Source: Myxococcota bacterium (GTDB lineage: Bacteria > Myxococcota > UBA4151). From it: 24,600 bases of DNA. Every line of letters starts with the position of its first letter. Position 1 is the stretch's first letter. Both the position numbers and the translations under genes were made by a program. Below, piece after piece: positions 1,282 to 22,504 of this stretch. The stretch covers positions 1 to 24,600 of the forward strand of contig JAYZBQ010000078.1 of the NCBI GenBank assembly GCA_036338695.1. Direction: 5' to 3'. Under the pieces are notes generated by a model. It made no database searches. It worked only from the letters and a program-made list of their open reading frames with translations, and had not been told where the DNA came from.

Positions 1282-2046
1282 TCAGCGATCGCCGGGCTCG
1301 TCACCCTGAGCAGCGGCTAAAAAGGCGGGCGATTCGCCCCCCCCGTGCAGCGGGATGCAACCGCCGGTAAGATAGCGAGCAGCCGGTGAGTCGAGATACA
1401 GACACAGCGAGGCGAGGTCCTCAGCGGTGGCCATCCGCTGCAGCGGCACCGTCTTGGCGACTCGCTCCACCCCTTCGGCACCGCCGTAATGCGCTAAGCT
1501 GTCCGGTGTCTCGACAAACCCCAAGGCCACGGCGTTGACCCGCAGCGCAGGCGCCCACTCCACCGCAAGGCTTTGCGTGAGATGAATCAAACCCGCTTTC
1601 GCGGCTCCGTAGGCTGCGGTTCCCGGCGAGGGTCGCTGACCACTCACCGAGGCGACGTTGATGATCTGCCCACCCTCGGGCTGCGTCTTCATCACCGCGT
1701 GCGCGGCCGTTGCGCAGTACAGCGGCGCCAAGAGGTTGAGCTCGATGATCTTACGCGAAAAGCTGCTCGAGGCTTGATCAGCCGGCACCATGGGGCTGCC
1801 GCCTGCGTTGTTGATGAGCAGGTCGATGCCGCCGAGATAGGCGGCTGCTTCTTCGCAGGCTGCAGCGGCTTGATCCGGGTCGCGCAGGTCAGCGACCGTG
1901 AAACCGACCCCTTGCGTCAAAGCTTGGTCTGGGCGGCGGCGCGCACAGGTAAACACGCGATAGCCGCTCTCGACAAAAGCCTCGACCAGCCCGCGACCGA
2001 CCCCACGACTACCGCCTGTAATCCAAACTCGTCGCGTCGCCTTCAT
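1282..2046 (-). CDS. SDR family oxidoreductase, Rv3549c-like (HIP cluster associated)
   Basis: TGGSRGVG, NNAGG and YGAAK motifs; RPSPGTAAYGAAKAGL..LTQSLAVEWAP.LRVN and C-terminal LHGGGE.PAFL recalled from this family. Start ATG 2046 (TTG 2052 alternative). Confidence 0.9.
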   Translation of the reverse strand: MKATRRVWITGGSRGVGRGLVEAFVESGYRVFTCARRRPDQALTQGVGFTVADLRDPDQAAAACEEAAAYLGGIDLLINNAGGSPMVPADQASSSFSRKIIELNLLAPLYCATAAHAVMKTQPEGGQIINVASVSGQRPSPGTAAYGAAKAGLIHLTQSLAVEWAPALRVNAVALGFVETPDSLAHYGGAEGVERVAKTVPLQRMATAEDLASLCLYLDSPAARYLTGGCIPLHGGGESPAFLAAAQGDEPGDR

Positions 2047-2141
2047 GGTCAAACCATGATGCAGAAGCGCCCGGCAAACAAGTTCTCGGCACTTGTCATG
2101 TGGCGCACCCTGCCGCAGGACAAGATGGATCGGAGGAGCTA

Positions 2142-3047
2142 ATGACTCGACTCTGCGATGGGCGCGTGGTGATCGTGACCGGCGCAGGCGCTGGGATTGG
2201 GCGGGCGCACGCGCTGGCGCTCGCAGAAGCCGGCGCCACCGTGATCGTCAACGATTTGGGCACCTCAAACCATGGAGAGGGCGCCAGCGAGGGGCCTGCC
2301 CAGACCGTCGCCAAGGCGATCACCGACGCCGGTGGGCGAGCGCTTGCGAACACAGACGATGTGACCGACAGCGACGCCATGCGCGCGCTCGTCGACGAGA
2401 CGATCTCCACCTTTGGGACCTTACACGCCGTCGTCAACAACGCCGGTTTTGTCCGAGACCGCATGTTTGTTTCCTGCGGTGACGACGAGTGGGATGCGGT
2501 GATGAACGTCCACCTGCGCGGGCACCTCGCCTTGTCTCGTGCGGCTGCCCAATTCTGGCGGGCTCAAGCCAAGGCCGGCGATCCGGTCGATGCGCGCATC
2601 ATCAACACCAGCTCGGGCGCCGGCTTACGCGGCTCGGTGGGACAATCGGCTTACTCAGCAGCCAAAGCGGGGATCCTCGCGCTCACGCTGGTCCAAGCGG
2701 CTGAGCTCAAACGCTATGGCGTGACCGCCAATGTCCTCTCGCCTGCGGCGCGCACGCGTATGACGGAGGCCGTCTTTGCTGAGATGATGGCTCGCCCAGA
2801 GACTGGCTTTGACCGCATGGACCCAGCCAACATCAGCCCGCTGGTCGTCTATCTTGCGAGCGATCGTTCGGGGCATGTCAGCGGGCGTAGTTTTGAGGTG
2901 GAAGGCGGCCTCATCGCTCTCAACAGCGGCTGGCGTCGCGGCGCACAGCGCAGCCAGCAAGCGCGCTGGGATGCGCAGGCGCTCGGATCCGTGATCGACG
3001 AACTGATCGCCGAACAACCGGCGGACACGCCCCCCTACGGCGCCTGA
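2142..3047 (+). CDS. SDR family oxidoreductase (3-hydroxyacyl-CoA dehydrogenase-like), Rv3548c-like
   Basis: DGRVVIVTGAGAGIGRAHAL, VNNAGFVRDRM, DARIINTSSGAGL.GSVGQ..YSAAK; GGAGGAG RBS just upstream of ATG 2142. Confidence 0.92.
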   Translation: MTRLCDGRVVIVTGAGAGIGRAHALALAEAGATVIVNDLGTSNHGEGASEGPAQTVAKAITDAGGRALANTDDVTDSDAMRALVDETISTFGTLHAVVNNAGFVRDRMFVSCGDDEWDAVMNVHLRGHLALSRAAAQFWRAQAKAGDPVDARIINTSSGAGLRGSVGQSAYSAAKAGILALTLVQAAELKRYGVTANVLSPAARTRMTEAVFAEMMARPETGFDRMDPANISPLVVYLASDRSGHVSGRSFEVEGGLIALNSGWRRGAQRSQQARWDAQALGSVIDELIAEQPADTPPYGA

Positions 3048-3535
3048 TTCGCTGCCTCTGGCGGCATCCCAGCGTAGTCGGTGCGGCGATAGTTTTGATG
3101 GCACGCAAAGCAGCCATCGCCGCCCGCCGTCGGCTGCTGAGGGTTCCCCTCCTCATCGGGCGTGACCATCTCCCAGCGCCAGTTCCCGTTCGCCGTATCG
3201 CCGCCCACCTCCAAGCGGGTCATCATCGTCCAGCTCTTGAGCGTCGAACAGTTCGAGTTGCTGTATTGTGCCTTGAGCAGCACCGAGCCCGGCTGAAAAG
3301 CGACCATCTCACCTGGCGGCAAGGTGCCAAGTTCTGGATCGATGCGCTGCGCCCAATCTGTATAAGTCGGCTGCGCCAAGTCGTTGGCGAAGACGCGGAT
3401 CGTGTCGCCCCCGTGCACTGAGCCCTCGGTGCACGGCTTTACCTGCTTCCAGCTCGTCGTGTAATCTTCCGGGAAAGGTGGCTCTTCACCGCAACCGGTG
3501 AGCGCGACACTCGCTGCTAGGACAAAACGCATCAT
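3035..3535 (-). CDS. Cytochrome P460-family (beta-sheet) monoheme lipoprotein
   Basis: Lipobox LTGC; FPEDY..W, VFAN, F.PGSVLLK, GNWRW, C-terminal CFACH followed by DY, which is the P460/c'-beta layout; GGAGG RBS; begins 21 bp after the thiolase stop. Confidence 0.8.
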   Translation of the reverse strand: MMRFVLAASVALTGCGEEPPFPEDYTTSWKQVKPCTEGSVHGGDTIRVFANDLAQPTYTDWAQRIDPELGTLPPGEMVAFQPGSVLLKAQYSNSNCSTLKSWTMMTRLEVGGDTANGNWRWEMVTPDEEGNPQQPTAGGDGCFACHQNYRRTDYAGMPPEAANQAP

Positions 3536-3556
3536 ACTGCACCTCCGGGCTGTCCC

Positions 3557-4720
3557 TTACAGACGTTGCAGCAGAAGCGCCATCCCCTGACCGCCGCCGA
3601 CACACAAGGTCGCAAGGCCGATCTCTAGGTCCTCATCTTCCAGGGTATGCAGTAGCGTGGTGACGAGGCGGACACCGGTCATGCCGAAGGGGTGCCCCAG
3701 CGCCAGCGCGCCCCCCCGCACGTTCAAACGATCGTCTCGAATGCCGAGCTGCTGCTGGCACGGAATGACCTGCGCAGCGAAGGCTTCGTTGAGCTCGATA
3801 CGGTCGACGTCGGCGAGGGTCATGCCGGCAGCCTTGAGGACCCGCCGTGTCGACTCGACCGGGCCCATACCCATGAGTTCTGGGGACACCGAGCTGACCG
3901 CCGTGGCGATGATCCGGGCGCGCGGCCGCAGCCCGAGCTCGGTCACCCGGCGTCCGCTCATCACAACCGCTGCGGCGGCGCCGTCGTTCAAGGGGCAAGC
4001 GTTGCCCGCGGTCACGCGACCGTCCTCGCGAAAAACAGTCCGCAGCCCTTGCAACCCCTCCAGGCTGGTTCCCGCGCGTGGCGACTCATCCCGATCAAAG
4101 CGTCTGCCGGCGCCGAGCGGGACCGCCACGATCTCACGCTCAAAGCACCCGGTCTCGAGGGCGTGTACCGCCCGGCGCTGGCTCTGAACGGCGTAGGTGT
4201 CCATCTGCTCACGCGTGACCCCGTAGGTATCGGCGACCCGCTCAGCGGTCTCGCCCATCGCCAGGTAAACATCCGGCAGGTCCGGCTCGGCTGCAAAGCG
4301 CGGGTTTTTGCTGCCCTCCATACCATCCGCTTTGCCGACATGGTAGCGACTGATCGCCTCAACGCCGGCGGCAATTTGAACCTGCGCCTCACCGGCTCGA
4401 ATCGCGTGATAAGCCATCCGAAGCGCCTGCAACGAGGAGGCGCAATAGCGATTGACGGTGGCACCTGCCGCGCCAGCCAGACCCGCTAGGAGCGAGACCG
4501 GTCGCGCCATATTGTAACCCTGCTCACCCGCTGGCTGGGCGCACCCGAGGAGCACATCCTCGACCTCGCTTGGGTCAAGCTCCGGCACCTCACCAAGCGC
4601 CGCTTGGATGGTCCAAGCCGCTAAGTCGTCGGCTCGCCAATCGACCAGGCTCCCTTTGAACGCCCGGGCGATGGGTGTTCGCTTGGCTGCAACCAAAACG
4701 GCGTCATGAGGTCGTAGCAT
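3557..4720 (-). CDS. Acetyl-CoA C-acyltransferase (thiolase), resembling the actinobacterial FadA3-type clade
   Basis: NRYCASS active Cys, NEAFA, GHPFG and CVGGGQG; LPDVYLAMGETAE and TAGNACPLNDGA signatures; overlaps the fadD3 stop by 17 bp. Confidence 0.93.
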   Translation of the reverse strand: MLRPHDAVLVAAKRTPIARAFKGSLVDWRADDLAAWTIQAALGEVPELDPSEVEDVLLGCAQPAGEQGYNMARPVSLLAGLAGAAGATVNRYCASSLQALRMAYHAIRAGEAQVQIAAGVEAISRYHVGKADGMEGSKNPRFAAEPDLPDVYLAMGETAERVADTYGVTREQMDTYAVQSQRRAVHALETGCFEREIVAVPLGAGRRFDRDESPRAGTSLEGLQGLRTVFREDGRVTAGNACPLNDGAAAAVVMSGRRVTELGLRPRARIIATAVSSVSPELMGMGPVESTRRVLKAAGMTLADVDRIELNEAFAAQVIPCQQQLGIRDDRLNVRGGALALGHPFGMTGVRLVTTLLHTLEDEDLEIGLATLCVGGGQGMALLLQRL

Positions 4721-6314
4721 CGTGCGCTCGCTCCTTGAGTTTGTATTTGAGCACCTTGCCGCTCGCGTTCATGGGCAACGAGTCGACCCACCGCACTGCG
4801 CGCGGTACCTTGAAATTTGCGAGGCGCTCCCGGCACAGGCTCATCAGCCCCTCCTCCTCGGCGACCGCGCCCTGCTTTGCCACCAAGTAGGCGACGCACA
4901 CCTCACCTAAGCGCTGATCAGGGACCCCGACCACCGCCGCTTGAGCCACCGCTTGATGCGCCAAGAGGACCTGCTCGACCTCCGCAGGGTACACGTTGAA
5001 GCCGCCCACGATCACCATGTCCTTTTTGCGGTCCGTGATCTGGAGGTACCCACGCGCATCGAGCATGCCGATGTCTCCCGTGTGCAAAAACCCATCCGAC
5101 TCGATCGCCTCGGCTGTGGCGACGTCATCGCGCCAGTAGCCGCTCATGACGTTGTAGCCGCGCACCATCACCTCGCCCGCCTCGCCGGCCTTCGCCTGTA
5201 GGCCATCCGAGCGGATAATTTTGACCTCCACGTCAGGGATCGAGCGCCCCGAGGTGGTTGCGATGGTCTCTGGGTCGTCATCGTGGCGACACATGGTCAC
5301 CACGCCGGTGGTCTCCGTTAGACCATACCCGGTGATGACGGTCTCAAAGCCGAGCCGGTGGCGCATCTGCTCGATCAACGTCACGGGAATCACCGCCGCG
5401 CCTGTCACCGCCAACCGCAGGCTCGAGCGGTCGTACGCGTCGAGGTCCTGGCGCGCCAAAATCGTCTGATAAAGCGCCGGAGGACCCGGTAAAACGCTCA
5501 CCCGATCGCGCCCGACGCGCCGAAGTAAGCGCTCGGGGTCAAAGACAGGCTCGGGCAACACGGTGGCGCCGGTCATCAGGCAAGCCAGCCAGCCAGCCTT
5601 GTAGCCGAAGGAGTGGAAGAAGGGCATCGCCACAAGGTACCGATCACCGGCTCGCAGACCGACGACCTCGGCCCAGTCTCGAAACACCCGCAGCGTCTGA
5701 GCGTGTGTGCTCGGCACCCCTTTGGGGGCGCCCGTGGTTCCCGACGTGAACAGAAGGTCGCAGAGATCATGGGCGCGCACCTGACGCCGGCGCGCTGCGA
5801 GCTCAGCGGGTGCCACCTCGGCACCGAGCGCTACAAAGCGCTGCCAGGACACCGCGCGCTCGTCGAGGCCGTCGAGCAGGACGACGTGGTCGAGCTGCGG
5901 CTGGCTTTGAGCGCGCGCGAGCAGGTCGAGGTAATCGGTGTCGAGGAAGCCCTCGATGGTGACGAGAAGACGGGCGCCGCTACGCTCTAAAATATAGGCT
6001 GCCTCATCGCCTCGGTACCGCGTGTTGATCGGCACCAGGCACGCGCCCACGCGCTGAATGCCCAGGGCCACAAGCACCCAATTCGGGTGATTCGGCGCCC
6101 ACAGCGCGACGCGATCACCCTGCGCGACGCCGAGCGCCATCAAGGCGGTCGCCGCCCGGTCCACAAGCTCTGGTAAGTCCGCGAAACGGATGCGCACCGA
6201 GTCAGCCTCGATGAACACGGCGTCGCCGTGAGCCTGCGCGGCGTGATCGACGAGGTCAGCGAGGGTCTGATAGACAAGATCGCCGCGGCAGCCTGATGCT
6301 TCAAAATCGGCCAT
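4704..6314 (-). CDS. fadD3: HIP-CoA ligase (FadD3-family acyl-CoA synthetase)
   Basis: FTSGTTGAPKG, PFFHSFGYKAGWLACL (FadD3-type), GYGLTE, LHTGDIG, GGFNVYPAEVE, GKVLK. Start reassigned to ATG 6314 with an AAGGGAG RBS; lies next to echA20-ipdABC. Confidence 0.88.
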   Translation of the reverse strand: MADFEASGCRGDLVYQTLADLVDHAAQAHGDAVFIEADSVRIRFADLPELVDRAATALMALGVAQGDRVALWAPNHPNWVLVALGIQRVGACLVPINTRYRGDEAAYILERSGARLLVTIEGFLDTDYLDLLARAQSQPQLDHVVLLDGLDERAVSWQRFVALGAEVAPAELAARRRQVRAHDLCDLLFTSGTTGAPKGVPSTHAQTLRVFRDWAEVVGLRAGDRYLVAMPFFHSFGYKAGWLACLMTGATVLPEPVFDPERLLRRVGRDRVSVLPGPPALYQTILARQDLDAYDRSSLRLAVTGAAVIPVTLIEQMRHRLGFETVITGYGLTETTGVVTMCRHDDDPETIATTSGRSIPDVEVKIIRSDGLQAKAGEAGEVMVRGYNVMSGYWRDDVATAEAIESDGFLHTGDIGMLDARGYLQITDRKKDMVIVGGFNVYPAEVEQVLLAHQAVAQAAVVGVPDQRLGEVCVAYLVAKQGAVAEEEGLMSLCRERLANFKVPRAVRWVDSLPMNASGKVLKYKLKERAHDATTS

Positions 6315-6325
6315 GCTGCGCTCCC

Positions 6326-6355
6326 TTGACGGCAAACTGAAACACGTTTCATTCT
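6326..6355 (+). promoter_or_regulatory. Putative sigma70-type promoter for the echA20-ipdABC arm
   Basis: TTGACG (6326-6331), 18-bp spacer, CATTCT (6350-6355), within the only intergenic gap between the divergent operons. Confidence 0.5.
6338..6351. promoter_or_regulatory. 14-bp palindromic operator TGAAAC-AC-GTTTCA matching the KstR consensus TnnAACnnGTTnnA
   Basis: Perfect 6-bp inverted arms; AT-rich against a GC-rich background; lies between the -35 and -10 and overlaps the -10. Confidence 0.75.
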
Positions 6356-6387
6356 GCGGTGGCAAGCGCCGAGGAACGACGACGACG

Positions 6388-7134
6388 ATGGCGATCACAA
6401 CGCATTTCGATGGAGCCATCGCCGAGGTCGTGGTGGACCGACCACCCGTCAACGCGCTCGACAGCCAGGCCTGGTTTGAGCTGGCTGAGGCCATCACCGC
6501 CGCAGGGCGACGTAACTCGGTCTGTGTCGTGGTGCTGCGCGCCGAGGGGCGGGGCTTCAACGCCGGCGTCGACCTCAAAGCGTGTCAGGCGAGCGACGGA
6601 CACGATGAGCTGCTGGCGGTCAACAGAGCATGTTTTGCTGCCTTCAAGGCGATCTATGAGTGCGAGGTCCCGGTGCTCGCCGCGGTGCACGGCTTCTGTC
6701 TGGGCGGTGGCGTCGGTTTGGTCGGAAACGCCGACCTAGTGATCGCCGCGAGCGACGCGAGCTTCGGTTTGCCCGAGGTGGACCGGGGCGCGCTCGGCGG
6801 CGCCACGCAGCTGGCGCGGCTGGTGCCGTCACCTCAGCGGCTGCGCAGTCTTGTGTTCACGGGCGAGCGGATCGGCGCAGACGAGCTGGCGCGCTATGGC
6901 TCGGTTCAAGAGGTCGTTGCGCCCGAGCGCTTACGTGAGGAGGCGCTGCGCTGGGCGGGTAAACTTGCGCAGAAAGACCCCAAGGTGCTGCGCGCCGCCA
7001 AGGACTGCCTCAACGGGATCGATCCGGTCGACGTCAACAGGAGCTATCGCTACGAGCAGGGCTACACCTTTGAGCTCAACCTCAGCGGGCATGGTGACGC
7101 CGCTCGACAGGCTTTTGTCCGCGGAGAGGACTGA
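6388..7134 (+). CDS. echA20: EchA20-type crotonase (HIEC-CoA hydrolase, steroid ring D opening)
   Basis: PPVNAL, AEGRGFNAGVDLK, GFCLGGGVGLVGNAD, FGLPEVDRGALG, DVNRSYRYEQGYTFELNL; GAGGA RBS before ATG 6388; immediately precedes ipdA. Confidence 0.9.
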   Translation: MAITTHFDGAIAEVVVDRPPVNALDSQAWFELAEAITAAGRRNSVCVVVLRAEGRGFNAGVDLKACQASDGHDELLAVNRACFAAFKAIYECEVPVLAAVHGFCLGGGVGLVGNADLVIAASDASFGLPEVDRGALGGATQLARLVPSPQRLRSLVFTGERIGADELARYGSVQEVVAPERLREEALRWAGKLAQKDPKVLRAAKDCLNGIDPVDVNRSYRYEQGYTFELNLSGHGDAARQAFVRGED

Positions 7135-7955
7135 TGCGCCCCGATAAGCGCATGACGCCTGAGGAGGCGGTGGCTGAACTCGAAGACGGGATGACCATCG
7201 GGATCGGCGGCTGGGGCTCTCGACGCAAGCCGATGAGGCTCGTGCGCGCCTTGCTCGAGAGCGCGCTGAGTGAGCTGACCGTTGTCAGCTATGGCGGCCC
7301 GGACGTCGGCTTGTTGGCGCGCGCCCAGCGCATCAAGCGCCTCCTCTATGGCTTTGTTTCGCTCGACTCGATTCCGCTCGAGCCCCACTTTCGCCAAGCG
7401 CGTCAACGGGGCGCCTTCGAGGCGGTTGAGATGGACGAGGGGATGCTCTGGTGGGGGCTCTATGCTGCGGCGCTCAAGCTCCCCTTTCTACCGACGCGTG
7501 CCGGGCTCGGCTCCGACGTGGTGACGCGCTCAAGCCTGCTCAAAACCGTCCGCTCACCCTATGCGGATTGCGAGGAGCTCGTCGCCGTTCCGGCGATCAA
7601 ACTCGACGCCGCCTTCATCCACGTCCACCGCGCCGACGCGGCAGGCAATGGCATGATCCTTGGACCCGACCCCTATTTTGATCGGCTCTTTGCGCAAGCC
7701 GCCAAGCACACCTACATGAGCTGCGAGCAGCTCGTTGAGACCGAGTCGCTCTTTGATGAGGCGACCTATCAGAGCGAGTCGATCGCCCGCCTTCACGTCC
7801 ATGGCGTCATCGAGGCGCCCAAAGGGGCAGGGTTTACCGAGTGCCTACCGGACTATGCGCGCGACGAGGCGCTGCAATCGCTCTATGCACAAGGAGCCAA
7901 AGACGACGAAGCGTGGGCTGAGTTCGAGCGCCGGTTCATGCAGGAGGCCCCATGA
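7134..7955 (+). CDS. ipdA: Steroid ring C-cleaving hydrolase, alpha subunit (class I CoA-transferase fold)
   Basis: GMTIGIGGWGSRRKPM, YGGPDVGLL, YGFVSLDS, EMDEGM, LPFLP.RAGLGS, DPYFD.LF, PDY.RDE, all matching IpdA/Rv3551 as recalled. Confidence 0.92.
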   Translation: MRPDKRMTPEEAVAELEDGMTIGIGGWGSRRKPMRLVRALLESALSELTVVSYGGPDVGLLARAQRIKRLLYGFVSLDSIPLEPHFRQARQRGAFEAVEMDEGMLWWGLYAAALKLPFLPTRAGLGSDVVTRSSLLKTVRSPYADCEELVAVPAIKLDAAFIHVHRADAAGNGMILGPDPYFDRLFAQAAKHTYMSCEQLVETESLFDEATYQSESIARLHVHGVIEAPKGAGFTECLPDYARDEALQSLYAQGAKDDEAWAEFERRFMQEAP

Positions 7956-8674
7956 GCGAGCGCCGCGCCGATATCTGCATCGCCGCGATCGCCGACGCCT
8001 TCGCCACCGACCGAGAGATCTTGGCGAGCCCGATGGGCCGCCTGCCCTCGCTGGGCGCCCGACTCGCTCGTCAGACCACCTCACCCCAGCTGATGATCAG
8101 CGACGGGGTCGCAAGCCTCACCACGGAGGCGGGTGCGCTCGAGGCGCACCTGCCCTATCGCGAGGTCTTTCACACGCTCTGGTCAACCAAACGACACGTG
8201 ATGATGGGCGCCAGTCAGCTCGATGCCTACGGCAACCAAAACATTAGCTGCATCGGCCCGTTCGAGGCGCCCAAGGCGATGCTCATCGGTGCGCGCGGCG
8301 CGCCGGGTAACACGCTGTATCATCGAACCTCTTACTGGATCCCCGTTCAGTCGCCGCGCAGCTTTTGTGAGGCGGTCGATTTCGTCTGCGGCGTCGGCTT
8401 TGATCGTGCGCGCTCCCTCGGCGCACGAGACAGCCGCTATCACGACCTGCATCGGGTCGTTACGAACCTCGGCGTCTACGGGTTCAATCAGGAAGGTCGC
8501 CTCACTGCGCTGACCTTACACCCCGGCGTCGACCAAGCCGCAGTCAACCAAGCCAGCGGCTTTGAGATCGACTGCTCGAAGGCGACGGTCAGTCGGCCCC
8601 CGACCGCCCTCGAGATGGAGTGGATCGAGCGCTTTGACCCTGAGGCGAAGCGCTATCAGGAGGTCAGCGAGTGA
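7952..8674 (+). CDS. ipdB: Steroid ring C-cleaving hydrolase, beta subunit
   Basis: ASPMG, GARLAR, RHVMMGASQLD.YGNQNIS, G.RGAPGNT..H.TSYW, VVTNLGV, LHPGV; ATGA overlap with ipdA. Confidence 0.92.
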   Translation: MSERRADICIAAIADAFATDREILASPMGRLPSLGARLARQTTSPQLMISDGVASLTTEAGALEAHLPYREVFHTLWSTKRHVMMGASQLDAYGNQNISCIGPFEAPKAMLIGARGAPGNTLYHRTSYWIPVQSPRSFCEAVDFVCGVGFDRARSLGARDSRYHDLHRVVTNLGVYGFNQEGRLTALTLHPGVDQAAVNQASGFEIDCSKATVSRPPTALEMEWIERFDPEAKRYQEVSE

Positions 8675-11692: not shown

Positions 11693-11695
11693 CCG

Positions 11696-12688: not shown

Positions 12689-13839
12689 CGGAAGCGTACA
12701 TCATCGACGCCGTGCGAACGCCCGTTGGGCGACGCCGAGGCGGCCTTGCTCAGGTGCATCCGGCGGACCTGGGCGCGCACGTTCTGCAAGCCCTCATCAA
12801 CCGCACGAAGATCCCGGATGAGGCGGTCGACGACGTCGTCTTTGGCTGCGTCGACGCCGTGGGGCCGCAAGCGGGGGACATCGCAAGGACCTGCTGGCTT
12901 GCGGCTGGCTTTCACGAGTCCGTGCCCGGTGTGACCGTCGATCGACAGTGCGGCTCCTCGCAACAGGCGCTGCATTTCGCAGCGCAAGGCGTGATGTCTG
13001 GCACCCAAGACCTGGTGATCGCAGGCGGGGTGCAGAACATGAGCATGGTGCCGATTGGCGCCTCCATGATCGCAGGCAAGGAGCTGGGGCACGCCGACCC
13101 CTTTAGCGGCTCTTCGGGCTGGATCAAGCGCTACGGCGGTCAACCGGTCAATCAGTTCTACGGCGCCGAGATGATCGCCAAGCGCTGGGGCTGCACGCGT
13201 GAAGACATGGAGGCCTTTGCGCTGCAGAGCCATCAGCGAGCGATTACAGCTCAGGATGAGGGGCGTTTTGACAACGAGCTCTCGCCTTTGCTCGGGGTGA
13301 CACAGGACGAGGGACCGCGCGCTGAGACCAGTCTTGAGAAGATGGCGAGTCTCGACGTCCTGATGCCTGACGGGCGCATCACGGCAGCCTGCTCGTCTCA
13401 GATCTCCGACGGCGCCGCAGCGCTCTTGGTCGCTTCGCGCGCCGCGCTCGACCGCTACGGGCTCACCCCCCGGGCGCGCGTGCACCACCTGAGCGTGCGC
13501 GCAGCCGACCCGATCTGGATGCTCACGGCGCCGATCCCTGCGACGCGATATGCGCTGAAGCGCTGTGGTCTGAGCCTGAACGAGATCGACCTTTTCGAGG
13601 TGAACGAGGCCTTTGCGTCCGTGCCGATGGCTTGGCAGCGCGAGCTCAACGCCGACCCTGCCAAACTCAACGTGAGCGGCGGCGCGATTGCGCTGGGACA
13701 CCCCTTAGGTGCTACGGGCGCTCGCTTGATGACGACCCTGCTCAACGAACTCGAGCGTACGGGGGGTCGTTACGGGCTGCAGACCATGTGCGAGGGCGGC
13801 GGTCAGGCGAACGTGACGATTATTGAAAGGCTCACATGA
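12685..13839 (+). CDS. fadA6: Thiolase FadA6 of HIP catabolism
   Basis: MTEAYIIDAVRT, VPGVTVDRQCGSSQQA, AGGVQNMS, MLTAPIPAT, NEAFA, GHPLG, MCEGGG; ATG 12685 overlaps the fadE32 stop; GGAGGG RBS. Confidence 0.88.
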   Translation: MTEAYIIDAVRTPVGRRRGGLAQVHPADLGAHVLQALINRTKIPDEAVDDVVFGCVDAVGPQAGDIARTCWLAAGFHESVPGVTVDRQCGSSQQALHFAAQGVMSGTQDLVIAGGVQNMSMVPIGASMIAGKELGHADPFSGSSGWIKRYGGQPVNQFYGAEMIAKRWGCTREDMEAFALQSHQRAITAQDEGRFDNELSPLLGVTQDEGPRAETSLEKMASLDVLMPDGRITAACSSQISDGAAALLVASRAALDRYGLTPRARVHHLSVRAADPIWMLTAPIPATRYALKRCGLSLNEIDLFEVNEAFASVPMAWQRELNADPAKLNVSGGAIALGHPLGATGARLMTTLLNELERTGGRYGLQTMCEGGGQANVTIIERLT

Positions 13840-14861
13840 AACTCGGACTGATGATCGGATACTCTGGCGCCCATTTGGACCTCCCGGTCGATCTGGTTCA
13901 AGAGGCTGAGAGCCTTGGTTATGACTCGGTCTGGATGGCCGAGGCGTGGGGTAACGACGCATGCACGCCCGGGGGGTACCTCGCGGCCGTGACCGAACGC
14001 ATCCGGCTGGGCACCGCGATCATGCAGGTCCCAGCAAGAACACCGGCCAACGCGGCGATGACCGCAATGACGCTCGATGAATTGAGCAATGGGCGCTTCA
14101 TCATGGGGATCGGCATGAGCGGGCCCCAGGTGGTCGAGGGCTGGCACGGCAAACCCTACCGTCTGACCCTGACTCAGCTGCGAGAATACATCCAGATTCT
14201 GCGTCGGATTTTCGCACGAGAGGAGCCGCTCGAATTTGAGGGCAAGTATTTCCGTATCCCTTACGATGGCGAACGCTCGACAGGACAAGGCAAGCCCTTA
14301 AAGAGCCTCATGCATGGCACCGACCGGATCCCGATTTACACCGGGAGTTTGGCGCCCAAGTCGCAGCAGATGTGCGGCGAGTACGCCGACGGCTGTCTGC
14401 TCACCAACATGATCCCAGAGGTCCCCGAAGCGGTCATGGAGAACCTTGAGGTGGGCTTCGAACGCGCCGGCGGCGGCAAGAGCCTTGAGAACTTTGACCT
14501 CGCCTGCACCGTTGCGGTCGTGCTCGACGACGACCTCGAGCGGGCGCGCACGCCGCTGCGACAGCAACTGGCACGTTACGTCGGCGGGTTTGGGACCAAG
14601 AAAACCAACTTCTACAAAGACTATCTGAGCCGCTGCGGCTGGGCTGAAGACTGCGAAAAGATCCAAGATCTTTTCCTCGCAGGCCATGCCCGACAAGCCA
14701 TCGATGCGGTCCCGAACGAGATGATCGACGCCCTCTATTTGGTGGGTCCCAAGGAGCGGATCCAAGAGCGCTTTGAGGCCTGGAAGCGCTCCCCGATCGG
14801 TACCTTTATGGTCGGCAGTCGCGACCCGCGCGTGATCCGCTTGCTGGCCCAGTGTATGTAG
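13836..14861 (+). CDS. LLM-class (luciferase-like) F420-dependent oxidoreductase, Rv3520c-like
   Basis: MKLGL..GY, AE.LGYDSVW.AEAWG.DA, RLGTAIMQ.PARTP..AAM.A.TLD.LS.GRF, SGPQVVEGWHG, G.GKPLKS; ATGA overlap with fadA6; F420 genes adjacent. Confidence 0.9.
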   Translation: MKLGLMIGYSGAHLDLPVDLVQEAESLGYDSVWMAEAWGNDACTPGGYLAAVTERIRLGTAIMQVPARTPANAAMTAMTLDELSNGRFIMGIGMSGPQVVEGWHGKPYRLTLTQLREYIQILRRIFAREEPLEFEGKYFRIPYDGERSTGQGKPLKSLMHGTDRIPIYTGSLAPKSQQMCGEYADGCLLTNMIPEVPEAVMENLEVGFERAGGGKSLENFDLACTVAVVLDDDLERARTPLRQQLARYVGGFGTKKTNFYKDYLSRCGWAEDCEKIQDLFLAGHARQAIDAVPNEMIDALYLVGPKERIQERFEAWKRSPIGTFMVGSRDPRVIRLLAQCM

Positions 14862-14865
14862 CACC

Positions 14866-15333
14866 ATGCGTGCCCCGTCGGCGGTCTTCATCACGGTGGC
14901 AGCGCTCGTCTCAGCGGGCTGCTCCCCCAAAACGCCGCCTCCCAAGCCGGAAAAGGTCGTCGAGAAGGTGCCGGAGCCTGCGCCGCGCGTCGTGCCGCTG
15001 ATCCCCAAGATGAAGGGCATCAATGAACAGATGGAGCGGCTTGTTCAGGCTGTCAAAGCCGACCAGCGAGAACAGGCGACTGAAGTCGCCAACCTGATCA
15101 ACAACCTCGCGCTCGCCATTCACGTGGAGCACGACCTGCAGCCGGGTTATGGCGATCAGTTTGCGGCGATCACCGCCGACTTCCAAGCCGCCAGCAAGGC
15201 CATGATCGAAGCGACTAAGGGGTCTCCTCAGGACCTAAAAATAGCGCTGCGTCATCTGCATGATCAGTGCCTTCGCTGCCATGATCAGGCACCTGCAGCT
15301 GCCGGAGCGGGCGTCTGCCAGCTCGCCGACTAA
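14866..15333 (+). CDS. Monoheme class II (cytochrome c'-like, four-helix) lipoprotein
   Basis: Lipobox SAGC, Pro/Lys-rich tether, amphipathic helical body and a single C-terminal CLRCH (15268-15282); starts 4 bp after the LLM stop. Confidence 0.75.
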
Positions 15334-15962
15334 CGGTTCTTGAGCCCCTCGATGCTGAGGCTCGCGCTGCCGCCATACTTGCGATTGAGGTGCAGCAACA
15401 CCGGGGTCATCGCCTCCAGGGCGATCGTATTCCTGAGCGGTCCTGCATCGAGGACGCTGACCTCAAGCTGTGCCAGCAGTGGGAGCATCTCCTCACGATC
15501 GGCTTTGGCGCCGCAGACCAAGACGTCGCCAGCGATAGTGTGCTCGAGGTCTGCGAGGTGGGTGTGGCTGATGTGGTGCAAAGCCGCCACCACGCGCCCC
15601 GCGTCACCGAGGATCTCTTGCGCCTCGAGCGCCGCCGACTGACCAGGCGGCAAGAAGACCTGCCGGACCTTGGGCGGCTTGAGCGGCACCGTGATGTCCA
15701 CGAGGATCCGACCTGCGAGCATCGGCTTGATCGCCTCGAGCACGGCTCGGTGGGCGCCGTACGGCACGCAGAGCATCGCGTAGTCAGCGCCCTCGAGCGC
15801 ATGGGCATAGTCACCGCCAACAACGCCGAGCCCCTCGGCGGCTTGCGCGCCGCGCGCCGCGTCCCGCGAGCCGAGGCGCACCGAGACACCCGCTCTGGCA
15901 AACCGACGCGCCAAACCTCGACCTTCTTGCCCCGTACCGCCGATCAACGCGATGGTCTTCAT
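15330..15962 (-). CDS. fno: F420H2:NADP+ oxidoreductase (NADPH-dependent F420 reductase)
   Basis: [63 protein letters not shown]...LE.MTP.L..LN.KY; AGGAGG RBS before ATG 15962. Confidence 0.92.
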
Positions 15963-16022
15963 GGAACCCTCCTGACCCACCTACGGTTGACCAAAAAAGC
16001 TTCGGCGTACAAGACCCACACC

Positions 16023-16787
16023 ATGACAGACGAAGCCTTACAGATCGAAGCCATCTCCGGCTTACCGACGGTGGAGCCAGGTGATGACCTCGCCGCCTTG
16101 GTCATCCAGGCTTGCGCGGCGCAAGGCGGCTTGCGGTCAGGTGATGTGCTGGTCGTGGTCTCTAAGGTGGTCGCGCGGGCAGAGGGGCGCTTTGTGAACC
16201 TCGAGACGGTGCGACCAGACCCGACCTCGGTCAAGCTCAGCCGCGTGGTCAAGAAAGACCCGCGGCTGGTGCACCTGATCCTGCAAGAGAGTCGCGGCTT
16301 ATCGCGCACGGCGCCTGGGGTGATGATCGTTCGCCACAAGCTCGGTTTTATCTCGGCGAACGCGGGCATCGACTCAAGCAATGTCGGTCGCTCCGAGGAG
16401 TGGGTTTTGTTGCTCCCGGAAGACCCGGACGGCTCGGCACGCACACTGCGGCAACGGCTGGAGGCTGAATTTGGTGGACCCATCGGCGTGATCATCTCGG
16501 ACTCGCACGGTCGCCCGTTCCGCAAAGGGACCCAAGGGGTCGCCATTGGCTTATCGGGCATCCCGGCGCTGCTCGACCAGCGAGGTCAGAAGGACCGCTT
16601 TGGGCGGATCCTGACCAGCACAGAGCTCCCCCTCGCCGACCAGCTCGCAGGCGCCGCCGACCTCGTCGCAGGCGCGGGCGCCGAAGGGGTCGCCGCCGTT
16701 CGCTTGCGCGGGCTGACATGGTCGGTCGATGACGCGGCGCGCGCCTCGGATCTCCAACGCCCAGCCGACAAAGACCTGTACGCATGA
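16023..16787 (+). CDS. cofE: Coenzyme F420-0:L-glutamate ligase (stand-alone CofE, no C-terminal nitroreductase domain)
   Basis: GLP.V.PGDDLA, GDVLVVVSKVVARAEGR, ANAGIDSSN, LLPEDPD.SA, IISDSHGRPFR.G, ADQLA.AA.LV.G; real start ATG 16023. Confidence 0.95.
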   Translation: MTDEALQIEAISGLPTVEPGDDLAALVIQACAAQGGLRSGDVLVVVSKVVARAEGRFVNLETVRPDPTSVKLSRVVKKDPRLVHLILQESRGLSRTAPGVMIVRHKLGFISANAGIDSSNVGRSEEWVLLLPEDPDGSARTLRQRLEAEFGGPIGVIISDSHGRPFRKGTQGVAIGLSGIPALLDQRGQKDRFGRILTSTELPLADQLAGAADLVAGAGAEGVAAVRLRGLTWSVDDAARASDLQRPADKDLYA

Positions 16788-17707
16788 AGGTCGTTGCGCT
16801 CTCAGGGGGCGTCGGCGGTGCCCGCTTGGTCGCGGGGCTCGCGGACTGCCTCGACCCGGAAGAGCTCACGGTTATCGTTAATACGGGCGACGACTTCAGG
16901 CATTGCGGGCTCTGGATCAGCCCCGACCTCGACACCGTCTTGTACACGCTCTCAGGCCGCGCACCGCTTGAGCGTGGCTGGGGTCTCGCCCAAGAAGATA
17001 CCCGCGCCATGGAAGGCCTTCGGGCGCTCGGAGGGCCTGACTGGTTCTCGCTGTCCGACCAAGACCTTGCGACCCACCTGCGGCGTACCCATCGCCTTGA
17101 GCAAGGCGCCAGCCTGACCACGGTAACGGAAGAGCTCATGCGGTCGCATCAGCTGCCCTACCGCGTGCTTCCCATGACCGATCAACCCCACCCGACCCAG
17201 CTGCGCAGCGGCGATCGGGTCTACGCCTTTCAGGACTGGTTCGTCGCTCAGCGCGCCAAACCGCCGGTCGATGAGGTCCTTTTTCCTGCAAACGGTAAGG
17301 CGAGCGACGCGGTGATTAACGCCATGGCCTCCGCTGATTTAATCGTGCTGACGCCGTCGAACCCCTACCTGTCGATCGATCCGTTGATCAGCCTTTCGAA
17401 CCTTAGCGAGGCTTGGGCTGATCGGCGCTGCCCTTGCGTCGCCGTCAGCCCGATCGTCGGCGGAGCTGCGGTCAAGGGGCCGCTGGCTCAGCTCATCGAG
17501 CAGCTCGCGCAGCGACCGCCCAGCCCCGACGCGGTCGCTGCGCATTATGGTGACAAGGTCGACGGCTGGATCCTCCAAGACGGCGACGTGCTCACGCAGA
17601 GCATACCGCATCGCCACGCGCAGACCCTGATGACCAGCACGGCGCGACGAAAAGCGCTCGCAAGGGTTGTCCTCGATTGGGGTCCGACCTTACCGTCTCG
17701 CGCATGA
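16784..17707 (+). CDS. cofD: 2-phospho-L-lactate/PEP transferase CofD (FbiA)
   Basis: LSGGVGGARL, IVNTGDDF, ISPDLDTVLYTL, WF.L.D.D.ATH, LPMTD, FQDWFV, PSNPYLSIDP, VSPIVGG.AVKGP. Confidence 0.95.
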   Translation: MKVVALSGGVGGARLVAGLADCLDPEELTVIVNTGDDFRHCGLWISPDLDTVLYTLSGRAPLERGWGLAQEDTRAMEGLRALGGPDWFSLSDQDLATHLRRTHRLEQGASLTTVTEELMRSHQLPYRVLPMTDQPHPTQLRSGDRVYAFQDWFVAQRAKPPVDEVLFPANGKASDAVINAMASADLIVLTPSNPYLSIDPLISLSNLSEAWADRRCPCVAVSPIVGGAAVKGPLAQLIEQLAQRPPSPDAVAAHYGDKVDGWILQDGDVLTQSIPHRHAQTLMTSTARRKALARVVLDWGPTLPSRA

Positions 17708-18249
17708 ACATCCTGCTGCCGATCCGCGCCCCTGAGTTTGCAAAGTCTCGGCTTGATGATGCGCGCCGCGCATCGATCTATCGCCAGCTCGTCGAGCGGA
17801 CCGTTCGCGTCATTCAAGAGCACGCCTCCGATTTTACCGTCTACTTGCTCTGCCCTGAAGAGGAGCAAGCCGAGTGGCCTGACCTGGCGCACATCGCCTG
17901 GCTCGACGACGAGCACCCTGGGCGGCTTGCGCAGGGCATCACCCACGCGCTGAGCCACTGGGAGCCCCCTGCGCTCGTGCTGATGCCGGATCTACCGCTC
18001 CTGTGCGCCGATGATCTCTCGGCGATGCTCAAGCAGACGCAGGACCTTGTCTGGATCCCCGACCGCAGCGGTCATGGGACCAACGGGATGATCTGGCGGG
18101 CTGGACCCCTGCCCTACCTCGCCTTCGGTCGACCGGATTCCATGCGCATCCACCTCAACGCGACGCGCGCCCCACGCCTCTACCGCCGCGGCTTAGCCTG
18201 GGACGTCGACACTCGGGCAGACTGGGACGCCTTACCGGCCGGGCGGTAA
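17704..18249 (+). CDS. cofC: CofC/FbiD guanylyltransferase (short, 181 aa)
   Basis: LLP.R....AKSRL, VLMPDLPLL...D, PDR.G.GTN, FG...S...H, DVDT.AD; ATGA overlap with cofD. Confidence 0.88.
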   Translation: MNILLPIRAPEFAKSRLDDARRASIYRQLVERTVRVIQEHASDFTVYLLCPEEEQAEWPDLAHIAWLDDEHPGRLAQGITHALSHWEPPALVLMPDLPLLCADDLSAMLKQTQDLVWIPDRSGHGTNGMIWRAGPLPYLAFGRPDSMRIHLNATRAPRLYRRGLAWDVDTRADWDALPAGR

Positions 18250-19409
18250 GCAAACGCATCGCTCGCTCGCAGGGTAAAGAAGTCGCCGTAATCCGCTCGC
18301 CATGAGCTCGAATCCGTCGCTTCGGTCGGGCGGTAAAGCGTATCGCGCTGGACCGCTTGACGCCCCACGCTCGCCGCCAGTCCGATCAACTCTTCGGGTG
18401 TCTTGAGTTGACCAAAGGGAGCACCCGCTGCCGTTGAGATGCTCTCGTTGATCAAGGTTCCCCCCAGGTCGTTGGCTCCGGCCTCAAGGAGCTTCTTCGT
18501 GCGCTGATCGCCCTCTTTCACCCAGCTCACTTGAAGGTTCGGGATGAGGTCACCGAGCACCAGACGACTTGTCGCATAGACGGCGAGGCGCTCGGCGTCG
18601 CTCGGCCCGGGTCGAACCCCGGGTTGATCGGCGAACAAAGGCGCCTCTTCGTGGACAAAAGCGAGCGGTACAAATTCGGTAAAACCGCCAGTGCGCGCCT
18701 GAATAGAACGCAGCGTCAGGAGGTGAATCGCCTGCTCTCGTGCGCTCTCGATGTGTCCAAACATCATCGTCGCGGTCGTACGAATGCCAAGCGAATGAAC
18801 GGTCTCAATAACCTCAATCCACTGCTCGGTCGTGATGCGCCCCACGGCGAGCTTCTTTCGGACGATATCGACCAAAATCTCAGCGGATGTTCCCGGTACG
18901 CTGTCCAACCCCGCATCTTTCAGCTGCTTGACCAAGGAGCGCAGCGAGCGCTGACTGCGCCGAGCGCCGTGCTTGAGCTCTTCGGGTGACCAGGCGTGCA
19001 GGTGCAGACTGGGGACCGCCTCTTTGACCGCCGCCGTGATCGCTAAGTACTCGTCAGCGTCTAGCTCGGGCGCAAGGCCTGCTTGAATGCAGATCTCGGT
19101 CGCGCCCATCGCCTCCGCCTCACGCGCTCGCCGCACGATCTCTGTGCGGGGCAGCAGATACCCGCGACCGCTCTGCACATGATCCGAGAAGGCACAGAAA
19201 TGGCAGCGCTTGGTGCAGACGTTGGTGAAATTGATGTTGCGATTGACCACAAAGGTCACCTCGTCGCCGACCTGCTCCCAGCGGCGGCGGTCCGCGCTGC
19301 TCACCAAGCGTTCGAGATCGTCGCCGCGCGCCTCGAGCAGAGCCTGCGCCACCTTCAAGCTTGGCTCCTCGCGCGCTTCCAACTGCGCGAGCGCCTCAGC
19401 GAACCTCAC
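18180..19409 (-). CDS. cofH: FO synthase subunit CofH (radical SAM)
   Basis: VTFVVNRNINFTNVCTKRCHFCAFS, TEICIQAG, PGTSAEIL, TMMFGHIE, TGGFTEFVPL.F, NLQVSWVK, GANDLGGTLINESIS.AAGA; GTG 19409 overlaps the cofG stop; GGAGG RBS. Confidence 0.93.
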   Translation of the reverse strand: MRFAEALAQLEAREEPSLKVAQALLEARGDDLERLVSSADRRRWEQVGDEVTFVVNRNINFTNVCTKRCHFCAFSDHVQSGRGYLLPRTEIVRRAREAEAMGATEICIQAGLAPELDADEYLAITAAVKEAVPSLHLHAWSPEELKHGARRSQRSLRSLVKQLKDAGLDSVPGTSAEILVDIVRKKLAVGRITTEQWIEVIETVHSLGIRTTATMMFGHIESAREQAIHLLTLRSIQARTGGFTEFVPLAFVHEEAPLFADQPGVRPGPSDAERLAVYATSRLVLGDLIPNLQVSWVKEGDQRTKKLLEAGANDLGGTLINESISTAAGAPFGQLKTPEELIGLAASVGRQAVQRDTLYRPTEATDSSSWRADYGDFFTLRASDAFAYRPAGKASQSARVSTSQAKPRR

Positions 19410-20464
19410 GCCGCCTCCAACGCGAGGGCGCATTGTCGCGCAGGCTCGATAAGCCGCTCATCGATCCAGCCCCCCTCAAGCCGATAGCGCTCATAGACCG
19501 GCAGGCGCGGGCGAAGGGTCTTTCCCTGGGCGGCGCATCGTGCCGCGAGCGCATCGATCACGGGCCAAGGATAGCCGGGGTTGATGAAGTCTGGAGTCAC
19601 CGGCGAGATCCCGCCAAAATCGTTGATGCCGGCCTCGATCAAAGCCTCCACGGCGCCTGGCGCAAGATTCGGTGGCGACTGGATCGATATCGAAGCCGGC
19701 AGGCGCATGCGCGCCAACGCAATGGTCTCGAGCAGATCCGGGTCGATCGCGCCAGGGTGAGCTCGCATCTTCGTCCCCGCATGCGCCCGAAAGGGCTGTA
19801 CGATCACCTCTTGCAAGTGACCGTGCTGGTCATGAAGCGCCGCCAGCGCGTCAATCGCCTCGACCCGCTCTCCCTTTGTCTCACCAAAGCCAACGAGAAT
19901 TCCCGATGTAAAGGGGATCATCAGCCGCCCCGCTTCGGCGATCATATGACGCCGAAGCGCCGGTCGCTTATCGGGCGCGCTGTGGTGCGGCATCCCCGGC
20001 TCACACAGGCGGTCCGAATTGGACTCGAGCATCAGCCCCAAGCTGACGTTGCAGCGGCGCAACCTCGCCATCGCCTCCGATGAGAGGATCCCGGCGTTGG
20101 TGTGAGGAAGAAGCCCTCGCTCGATGGCCTGATGAGCGATCCATTCAAGATAGGACACCGTGCTGTCAAAGCCCCAAGACTCGAGCAAGCGCTGGTAAGC
20201 TGGAAAGCCGGTCTCGGGCGTATCGCCGAGACACAAGAGCGCCTCGATGCAGCCGAACGCGCTGGCTTGATCGAGCGCTGCGAGCACCTGCTCTCGCGTC
20301 ATCGTCTGCGCGCCAGGCTGCCCGGGGCTACGCCGAAAAGCGCAATAACTGCAGACGTTTCGGCACAAATTCGTGACAGGTAGGAACACTTTGGGGCTGT
20401 AGGTCAGCGTCTGACCGTACGCCCGATCTCGCTTCGTCGATGCGGCTTCAAGGCGGCGGGGCAT
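19406..20464 (-). CDS. cofG: FO synthase subunit CofG (radical SAM)
   Basis: TYSPKVFLPVTNLCRNVCSYCAF, GC.EAL...GD.PE, GLLPHTNAG, SLGLMLES, PFTSGILVG.GE, HLQEVIVQPF, IQSPPNL, AGINDFGGISPVT.DFINP; AAGGAG RBS. Confidence 0.95.
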   Translation of the reverse strand: MPRRLEAASTKRDRAYGQTLTYSPKVFLPVTNLCRNVCSYCAFRRSPGQPGAQTMTREQVLAALDQASAFGCIEALLCLGDTPETGFPAYQRLLESWGFDSTVSYLEWIAHQAIERGLLPHTNAGILSSEAMARLRRCNVSLGLMLESNSDRLCEPGMPHHSAPDKRPALRRHMIAEAGRLMIPFTSGILVGFGETKGERVEAIDALAALHDQHGHLQEVIVQPFRAHAGTKMRAHPGAIDPDLLETIALARMRLPASISIQSPPNLAPGAVEALIEAGINDFGGISPVTPDFINPGYPWPVIDALAARCAAQGKTLRPRLPVYERYRLEGGWIDERLIEPARQCALALEAA

Positions 20465-22424: not shown

Positions 22425-22504
22425 CGTCGCCGTCGCCGCAAGAAAAGACCAAACGCAAGCAAAAGCAGCGCGCTGGCGTCGACCGAGCCGCACGAGCAGC
22501 CGCC
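22415..22504 (-). other. MYXO-CTERM sorting signal
   Basis: GGCSC motif, short spacer, hydrophobic helix and Arg5 cluster at the extreme C-terminus. Confidence 0.85.

Follow-up and report, generated by a model that had tools for sequence, protein, structure and literature searches.

F420 genes beside a steroid C/D-ring degradation operon in a Myxococcota bacterium

Why should the genes that make, recycle and use the cofactor F420 stand beside genes that degrade the C and D rings of steroids? The question is raised by the window analysed here, an entire contig of 24.6 kb (JAYZBQ010000078.1) from a 3.36-Mb Myxococcota genome that is 93.6% complete (G000). Between positions 1282 and 20464 the window carries genes for the degradation of 3aα-H-4α(3′-propanoate)-7aβ-methylhexahydro-1,5-indanedione (HIP), the gene of a luciferase-like (LLM) enzyme of the F420-type family TIGR03559, a gene for NADPH:F420 oxidoreductase (fno), F420 synthesis (cof) genes and two heme-c lipoprotein genes. 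All of these had been named in an original prediction, which read the block as an F420- and cytochrome-linked catabolic island whose steroid breakdown includes an F420-dependent step. Family scans (Pfam and NCBIfam) of 26 + 4 window open reading frames (ORFs) bear out the gene content. An F420-dependent step tied to steroid catabolism is supported by recurrence of the linkage in other lineages and by predicted co-regulation, and the LLM enzyme probably acts on a steroid intermediate with F420.

Recurrence and predicted regulation

The LLM gene (13836..14861, plus strand; TIGR03559, 357 bits, cut-off 335) overlaps the thiolase gene fadA6 (12685..13839, plus strand; NF005865, 681 bits, cut-off 591) by the ATGA at 13836-13839. 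The best 120 protein relatives are 57-93% identical, and the named taxa among them are Myxococcota, Polyangiales, Polyangiaceae, Kofleriaceae and Byssovorax. No relatives were found among viral contigs, and a plasmid search gave only distant actinobacterial LLMs and some SDRs.

The best 80 of at least 592 metagenome loci were examined (labels L). Trees of 114 and then 39 rows were built, and in the 39-row IQ-TREE tree the window enzyme and five metagenome loci form one clade, with bootstrap and Shimodaira-Hasegawa-like approximate likelihood ratio (SH-aLRT) values of 100/100. A steroid marker is present in 4/4 clade loci of at least 8 kb vs 0/38 outside the clade (0/75 at any length), with marker thresholds that were chosen after the loci were viewed. 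Locus L232 has the order echA20/ipdABC-echA13-fadE-fadA6-LLM, followed by kshA. L172 has fadE30-ipdF, a 3β-hydroxysteroid dehydrogenase (3β-HSD)-like gene and then LLM-fno-cofE-cofD-cofC; the same arrangement is seen in L171 (ipdF, the 3β-HSD-like gene and LLM-fno-cofEDC), with cofH and cofG in addition. The 3β-HSD-like gene is divergent from the LLM gene in both. Relative to the window, the Ipd proteins of L232, L172 and L171 are 55-67% identical and CofD 47-49%.

Besides the post hoc thresholds, other points reduce the weight of this recurrence. The L179 marker is a kshA-like gene at 38%, the L171 marker consists of 35 residues from the end of ipdF, where the contig stops, and L171 is closely related to L172. 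Because of the thresholds, this kinship and the short L171 marker, the independent lineages with the linkage are put at about three besides that of the window. The recurrence in independent lineages that the original prediction had proposed as a check is thus found outside the genus of the window.

A second clade unites an Rv3521-syntenic Mycobacteroides protein with the LLMs of genomes G100 and G111 (100/99-100 for both clades). A joint clade of the window enzyme and the mycobacterial Rv3520c is not rejected (approximately unbiased (AU) test, p = 0.053). No steroid or cof genes are seen at three Chloroflexota loci (51-54% identity, GTDB); the majority of Streptomyces TIGR03559 loci adjoin acyl-CoA dehydrogenase and thiolase genes.

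A survey of 401 phylum genomes of at least 80% completeness found ipdA in six (G000, G001, G002, G004, G060 and G111), cofE in six (G000, G001, G002, G095, G100 and G146) and the LLM in six (G000, G001, G002, G095, G100 and G111). Phylum-wide, the LLM is limited to genomes positive for kshA, which was looked for in 16 genomes, plus G111. The host family comprises six genomes in two genera; G001 and G002 are well-assembled congeners of G000 with Myxococcota in their titles, and G004 belongs to the sister genus (94% complete). Since G004 and G060 (98% complete) bear the ipd cluster with no cof or LLM matches, the F420 step is dispensable for ipd-bearing degraders. The cassette of fno/cofEDC/cofHG is found unchanged in G146, a genome without LLM, ipdA or kshA; it is therefore a module of its own, which also counts against a tie to steroids. 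In G146 (L155:7039-12359, G146:C3) there is no PF00296 match in the genome, and a PNPOx-family gene by cofG may be the F420 user there.

Genomes G095 and G100 (86-88% complete) have boxed F420 genes, as described below, and kshA, yet ipdAB were not found. Together with G065 they have a KstR-like regulator, kshA and 12-16 boxes; ipdA was found in none of the three, and ipdB is also missing in G095 and G100. Either the assemblies have gaps here or ring C is opened in another way.

It should be pointed out that G111 is not counted as an independent case among myxobacteria, because contigs C73 and C74 look actinobacterial and because no cofE, kshA or box set was found in it. These contigs (L145, L146, L150-L152) have the order gpsA-cofC, a fused cofG-cofH split by a frame change, mycothiol-deacetylase-like genes, a GC of 45% and three LLMs, and may be contamination of the bin. 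The G111 LLM of the Rv3520c clade lies between an Rv3549c-like short-chain dehydrogenase/reductase (SDR) gene and ipdF.

The second line of evidence is the operator of the repressor KstR, for which the available text of PMC1995591 gives the motif TnnAACnnGTTnnA. A palindrome that fits it lies in the fadD3/echA20 gap (6338..6351) and is kept in G001, G002 and G004. The strict box occurs 10 times in G000, this palindrome included, where 0.19 are expected by base composition and the reversed-pattern control gives 4; it precedes hsa, kstD-region, kshA, P450 and thiolase genes, among others. Each of nine kshA-positive genomes has 7-16 strict boxes (reversed control 0-4), vs 0-3 in six others. In G095 and G100 a box lies in the fno/cofE gap and another, on a different contig, before an SCP2-ACAD-ACAD-LLM operon (ACAD, acyl-CoA dehydrogenase), in which the ACAD alpha subunit has its closest solved structures among steroid alpha2beta2 enzymes. 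The fno/cofE gap of the non-degrader G146 has no box. A relaxed box, with one end base free, is present in 3/5 clade loci vs 0/75 others, a pattern that was defined after the strict-box results; it lies ~40 bases upstream of the LLM gene in L170 and also before LLM-fno-cof in L171.

The genus of the window provides a counter-example in part, as it has no box at fno/cofE or before cofG, and therefore only the LLM gene is predicted to be under steroid control there. Thus co-regulation of F420 and steroid genes is predicted from boxes at LLM or cof genes in other genomes, and does not extend to the cof and fno genes of the window's own genus.

A full-length KstR-like TetR protein with its own upstream box is encoded on another contig, C13 (G000:C13:23947-24489, within the stretch 23947-24550). 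It scores 82 bits against a KstR cut-off of 280 and may work like KstR despite falling below the family cut-off. In G000 the genes for the side chain, the A/B rings and the C/D rings all appear to be served by a single KstR-like TetR protein and a single type of operator; mycobacteria divide control of these genes between KstR and KstR2. Boxes at G000:C4:18058, C98:44582, C98:50568 and C22:4198 lie before a lipoprotein gene, an acyltransferase-like gene, genes near an IpdC-like protein and a thiolase gene, and these are likely further members of the predicted regulon.

Taken together, the link between the TIGR03559 clade, F420 supply and steroid catabolism is real and recurrent, beyond chance, and it is optional, not core. 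As relatives of the enzyme lie elsewhere by steroid genes and behind a predicted repressor site, an optional F420-dependent step in steroid breakdown is likely.

Candidate chemistry of the enzyme

A structure model of the LLM protein (predicted local distance difference test score 87) retrieves F420 enzymes at ranks 1-12 of a fold search, Mer and then Adf and Fgd, ahead of flavin monooxygenases. By fold and family cut-off the protein is a predicted F420-dependent hydride transferase. Alcohol oxidation by Fgd uses His40 as base and Glu109 as acid, according to the available text of PMC12384609. The catalytic His aligns with A37 of the LLM protein (position set via the Mer alignment); this position is Ala, Ser or Gly in 114/114 family sequences and never His, and E101 is invariant. 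LxmJ is a luciferase-like hydride transferase (LLHT) known to reduce activated C=C bonds (PMC8498797).

The LLM protein is the only PF00296 match in G000. No FrhB was found in this genome, and its two PF01243 (PNPOx-family) matches are PdxH and a photolyase neighbour, so that among the families searched the LLM appears to be the sole F420 user. Fno, not Fgd, is the only F420-recycling enzyme found. Three photolyase/cryptochrome-like genes (G000:C22:55186, C5:2951 and C35:27753) could take Fo from CofGH as antenna; such use of Fo would require none of cofC, D, E and fno.

The preferred explanation is that the LLM protein would be an accessory F420H2-dependent reductase of C=C bonds in steroid-derived enoyl- or dienoyl-CoA. 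The adjoining cof genes would make F420, and Fno would reduce it with NADPH. The LLM protein would most likely do the work of a 2,4-dienoyl-CoA reductase and remove the conjugated double bonds produced when extra-unsaturated sterols go through β-oxidation. From established β-oxidation chemistry, a Δ22 side chain would give a 22,24-dien-26-oyl-CoA and a ring Δ8 bond a dienoyl-CoA on the C/D fragment. The core HIP route would proceed without the LLM protein, and an NADPH enzyme would take its place in lineages that lack F420. As a whole this is the best explanation, held at a little under even confidence. The chemistry taken alone, C=C reduction of a CoA ester, is tentative; it was chosen because of the missing His, the gene that fills the corresponding slot in G004 and the mutual exclusion of two enzymes, despite the caveats below.

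In G004 fadA6 is followed by a gene for a PRK07576 SDR; among solved structures, peroxisomal 2,4-dienoyl-CoA reductase is closest to this SDR (E 1e-50). Among eight kshA-positive genomes of at least 80% completeness, five have LLM and cofE without the dienoyl-CoA-reductase-like SDR and three have the SDR without LLM or cofE, although this exclusion amounts to 2 vs 3 genera (p = 0.1 by hand count). No full-length FadH-like protein was found in G000; the sister genus has one.

The small number of genera is not the only argument to be set against C=C reduction. The absence of the His is family-wide and no proof of ene-reduction. The SDR is a general gene, found in 172/401 genomes; it adjoins steroid genes only in G004, and the G060 copy lies on a 3.4-kb contig without them. 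A FadH-like protein occurs alongside an Rv3520c-clade TIGR03559 enzyme in G100 and one Mycobacteroides genome. With respect to other F420 users, a PF04075 search of G000 was empty, but its control was also empty, and other flavin/deazaflavin oxidoreductase (FDOR) families were not searched. Finally, the function is a prediction from sequence, context and model.

The alternative that survives best, though it is unlikely, is the most plausible form of the step in the original prediction, namely that the LLM protein carries out ketone/alcohol redox on a C/D-ring fragment. Among known LLHT reactions this type is the most frequent (Adf, Fgd and fPKR; PMC8498797), and the LLM gene has C/D-ring genes as neighbours in the window, L232, L171, L172 and G111, with the 3β-HSD-like gene divergent from it in L171 and L172. 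The enzyme of 5-oxo reduction in mycobacteria is also left open in the available text of PMC5380842. However, the LLM protein is without the catalytic His and IpdF is present in G000. The reduction is performed in Comamonas by the SDR ScdB, according to the accessible part of bioRxiv 10.1101/2025.11.20.689525, and the Rv3549c-like SDR of the window may be the ScdB counterpart, going by a distant CNB-2 locus number in Table 1 of the available PMC5380842 text. In addition, G004 and G060 have ipdAB without F420 genes, and G095 and G100 present the opposite case. An LLM protein that replaces IpdF was considered and rejected, as ipdF is found on C13 of G000 and also in G001, G002 and G004.

A further explanation, which is improbable, would have the LLM protein as a general lipid- or enone-detoxifying F420H2 reductase drawn into the sterol repressor regulon, with substrates such as unsaturated fatty acyl-CoA from prey membranes or toxic dienone steroids. 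The Streptomyces loci described above fit this idea, boxes in G000 also lie before non-steroid lipid genes, and G000 is without both usual dienoyl-CoA reductases. It is difficult to reconcile with the clade-wide tie to steroid-specific genes and with the restriction of the LLM to kshA-positive genomes and G111.

The HIP operon and the LLM-F420 cassette could also be unrelated chance neighbours, brought together in one genus. The cassette does stand alone in G146, LLM genes often follow cof operons at loci that have no steroid genes (L203, L206, L227 and L239), and the cof genes in the window's genus have no box. Nevertheless, the linkage recurs with different junctions in about three other lineages, boxes stand at cof or LLM genes even where ipd genes are not adjacent, and cofCDE lie in a Sterolibacterium steroid cluster. 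Clade context and boxes largely refute this explanation, which is left with a small probability. Least credible is that the LLM protein is a flavin mononucleotide-dependent Baeyer-Villiger monooxygenase like the progesterone LLM of Caenibius, with F420 serving something else: a steroid LLM monooxygenase is documented (available text of PMC12239570), but the window enzyme passes the F420-type family cut-off, is nearest to Mer in fold and sequence, and is joined to fno-cof operons elsewhere, with no other F420 user found in G000.

If C=C reduction of a steroid CoA ester is retained, a wider and more doubtful possibility is that Myxococcota, Actinomycetota and at least one betaproteobacterium share an F420 branch of steroid breakdown, with TIGR03559 as a third, unrelated class of F420H2-dependent 2,4-dienoyl-CoA reductase beside SDR and FadH, and that some lineages maintain the entire F420 pathway, controlled by the sterol repressor, for this single reaction. 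If true, TIGR03559 enzymes would let bacteria use sterols with extra double bonds. The locus isolates the question, as one F420 user, its cofactor supply and a steroid operon lie side by side; sister lineages without F420 serve as natural controls and hint at the candidate reaction, and a short list of substrates for direct assay follows. The locus may also suggest a reason for F420 production in some Gram-negative bacteria, and the enzyme might be a low-potential steroid ene-reductase for biocatalysis.

The gene block and the host pathway

The block starts with genes for an Rv3549c-like SDR (1282..2046, minus strand; NF005893, 331 bits, cut-off 255) and an Rv3548c-like SDR (2142..3047, plus strand; NF005861, 434 bits, cut-off 373). 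On the minus strand, opposite to the echA20 operon, lie genes for a heme-c lipoprotein of cytochrome P460-like fold with CxxCH at 142 (3035..3535; PF16694, a weak match, E 7e-7), a thiolase nearest to PRK07851 (3557..4720; NF005890, 555 bits, below the cut-off of 580) and the HIP-CoA ligase FadD3 (4704..6314; NF005801, 714 bits, cut-off 657). The thiolase gene behind fadD3 is present in G001 and is not at that place in G002 or G004.

Across the operator, on the plus strand, follow echA20 for the ring D hydrolase (6388..7134; NF005925, 367 bits, cut-off 260), ipdA (7134..7955; best PDB matches 6con/6co6, E ~8e-82), ipdB (7952..8674; PF01144 weak, 45-52% identity to ipdA partners in other steroid degraders), a gene for an ipdC-like flavoenzyme (8671..9735; PF03060, FabK-like, and position) and one for an echA13-like crotonase (9728..10567; NF006140, 404 bits, cut-off 280). 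Next are genes for an ACAD alpha subunit, FadE31-like by position (10568..11692; best PDB matches the steroid alpha2beta2 ACADs 4x28 and 6wy9), and a beta subunit from family scans, FadE32/33-like by position (11696..12688), then fadA6, the LLM gene and the gene of a cytochrome c'-like lipoprotein with CxxCH at 135 (14866..15333; a weak cytochrome c' match, genus-restricted). Because the ten genes from echA20 through the cytochrome c'-like gene overlap or are no more than 4 bases apart, they likely form one operon, in which the LLM gene is ninth and which would be induced by steroids.

The fno gene (15330..15962, minus strand; TIGR01915, 132 bits, below the cut-off of 150, with the next family at 33 bits) is head to head with cofE (16023..16787; TIGR01916, 248 bits, cut-off 181), cofD (16784..17707; TIGR01819, 256 bits, just below the cut-off of 257.5) and cofC (17704..18249; TIGR03552, 83 bits, below the cut-off of 105), all on the plus strand. 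Converging on cofC from the minus strand are cofG (19406..20464; TIGR03550, 395 bits, cut-off 213) and cofH (18180..19409, start inferred; TIGR03551, 439 bits, cut-off 374). CofD, CofC and Fno thus have the correct best family with scores under the family cut-offs. CofE stands alone; in actinobacteria dehydro-F420 is reduced by a nitroreductase domain, which is missing here (no search for a stand-alone reductase was made).

The block had been described as contiguous. Its genes are indeed adjacent, yet they make up five transcription units rather than one, and ipdF and fadE30 are on C13. A promoter and terminator scan of the window was at chance level. Gene order is kept in G001 and G002, across contig breaks. 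GC (0.62-0.67) and GC at third codon positions (GC3, 0.71-0.81) are flat along the window and there is no mobility gene among the scanned ORFs; a recent genomic island is therefore rejected. The flanks fit Myxococcota, with a TIGR02232 repeat and OmpA/TSP3 proteins, in keeping with the surface genes of this type predicted on both sides. Minus-strand genes at 20448-24598 encode an OmpA/TSP3 protein and a long protein of Ca-binding repeats whose C-terminal tail is of myxobacterial type; the end of the OmpA gene is overlapped by cofG, and the two may be co-transcribed. The plus-strand ORF at 577-1185, situated between a lectin-domain gene and the steroid block, codes for 202 aa, probably includes a signal peptide and matches no family in Pfam or NCBIfam.

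As a carrier, F420 is restricted to hydride transfer. Cytochromes as its electron partners find no support, and the predicted cytochrome link falls away: the c'-like protein has 21 relatives (44-95% identity) and is missing from other LLM-cof loci, and neither heme protein is found in the best 80 metagenome loci. The P460-like lipoprotein is kept in G001 and G002, is missing from the G004 cluster and is probably a passenger; both heme-c lipoproteins look like passengers.

Elsewhere in G000, contig C13 carries hsaA, C, D, E, F and G-like, kstD-like and ltp3/ltp4/Rv3521-like genes, ACAD pairs, a fadE30-like gene and ipdF (NF005880, 423 bits, cut-off 336), and two kshA-like genes are present, one on C28 and one on C32. 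For kstD, kshA and hsaACD the best families are right, with scores mostly under equivalog cut-offs. The HIP set of fadD3, echA20, ipdAB, ipdC, ipdF, fadA6 and ACADs is complete. From this gene content, an aerobic 9,10-seco route and canonical NAD/flavin HIP enzymes are predicted to be encoded in G000. The suggestion that the F420 step is part of, or needed for, C/D-ring cleavage is not supported, as IpdF, IpdC, EchA20, IpdAB, FadA6 and both SDRs are present, and neither cofE nor the LLM was matched in G004, G060 or G065, which are steroid degraders. No LLM gene is found alongside the Rv3521-ltp4-ltp3-like genes on C13.

Relation to known systems

No F420 reaction in steroid breakdown is assigned in the literature searched (without subscription papers or bioRxiv supplements) beyond the annotations cited here, and a search of the same scope for steroid-degrading Myxococcota likewise gave nothing beyond these annotations. 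By word search, two surveys of steroid degraders and a 2026 cluster comparison mention neither F420 nor myxobacteria. The locus adds evidence for steroid degradation by Myxococcota under a KstR-like switch.

The system is undescribed in the sense that no reaction has been assigned, and it is not without precedent. The available texts place Rv3520c in the mycobacterial cholesterol cluster (PMC6429209), show KstR binding to its promoter (PMC1995591) and, in a 2026 review, count it among the F420-dependent cholesterol enzymes without assigning a reaction (PMC12855090); the family has been without a function since its placement in the KstR regulon in 2007. The window enzyme shares with Rv3520c the TIGR03559 family, a steroid cluster and a KstR-type operator. 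It differs in falling in another clade in the best trees (the joint clade is not rejected, as above) and in following fadA6, whereas Rv3520c is divergent from Rv3521-ltp4-ltp3. Unlike the setting of Rv3520c, F420 synthesis and recycling genes are adjacent, with recycling by Fno and not Fgd.

With the HIP pathway of the KstR2 regulon (PMC5380842, whose available text does not mention F420) and the Comamonas scd genes, the window shares fadD3, echA20, ipdABC, echA13, ACADs, fadA6 and both SDRs, with ipdF and the fadE30-like gene on C13. It differs in its Myxococcota host, a KstR- rather than KstR2-type box on the C/D-ring operon, and the attached F420 enzyme and cof genes.

One of the three acyl-CoA synthetases of Sterolibacterium denitrificans is reportedly HIP-activating. 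The Fig. 11 legend of PMC6678751, the only place where the available text mentions F420, draws cofC, cofD and cofE (SDENCHOL_10763-10772) inside a steroid cluster, directly before ACS3, a hydratase, SDRs and an ACAD pair. The likeness lies in cofCDE by a cholesterol-degradation acyl-CoA synthetase, hydratase, SDRs and ACAD pair. The host, however, is an anaerobic betaproteobacterium, and the legend names no LLM, fno or cofGH.

Bacterial F420 operons and the LLHTs Mer, Adf, Fgd and LxmJ (PMC8498797, a 2021 review that does not mention steroid or cholesterol) resemble the window in the TIM-barrel hydride transferase and the clustering of synthesis, recycling and user genes; the window LLM differs from Adf and Fgd in having no Fgd-type catalytic His and in its steroid context. 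The progesterone LLM of Caenibius, a flavin monooxygenase, is another matter (available text of PMC12239570). Finally, the 2,4-dienoyl-CoA reductases, the SDR DECR2/PRK07576 and the flavoprotein FadH, share with the window enzyme the proposed reaction and, in G004, the slot after fadA6. As fold and cofactor of the LLM protein are unrelated to theirs, it would be an analogue of these enzymes and not a member of either class.

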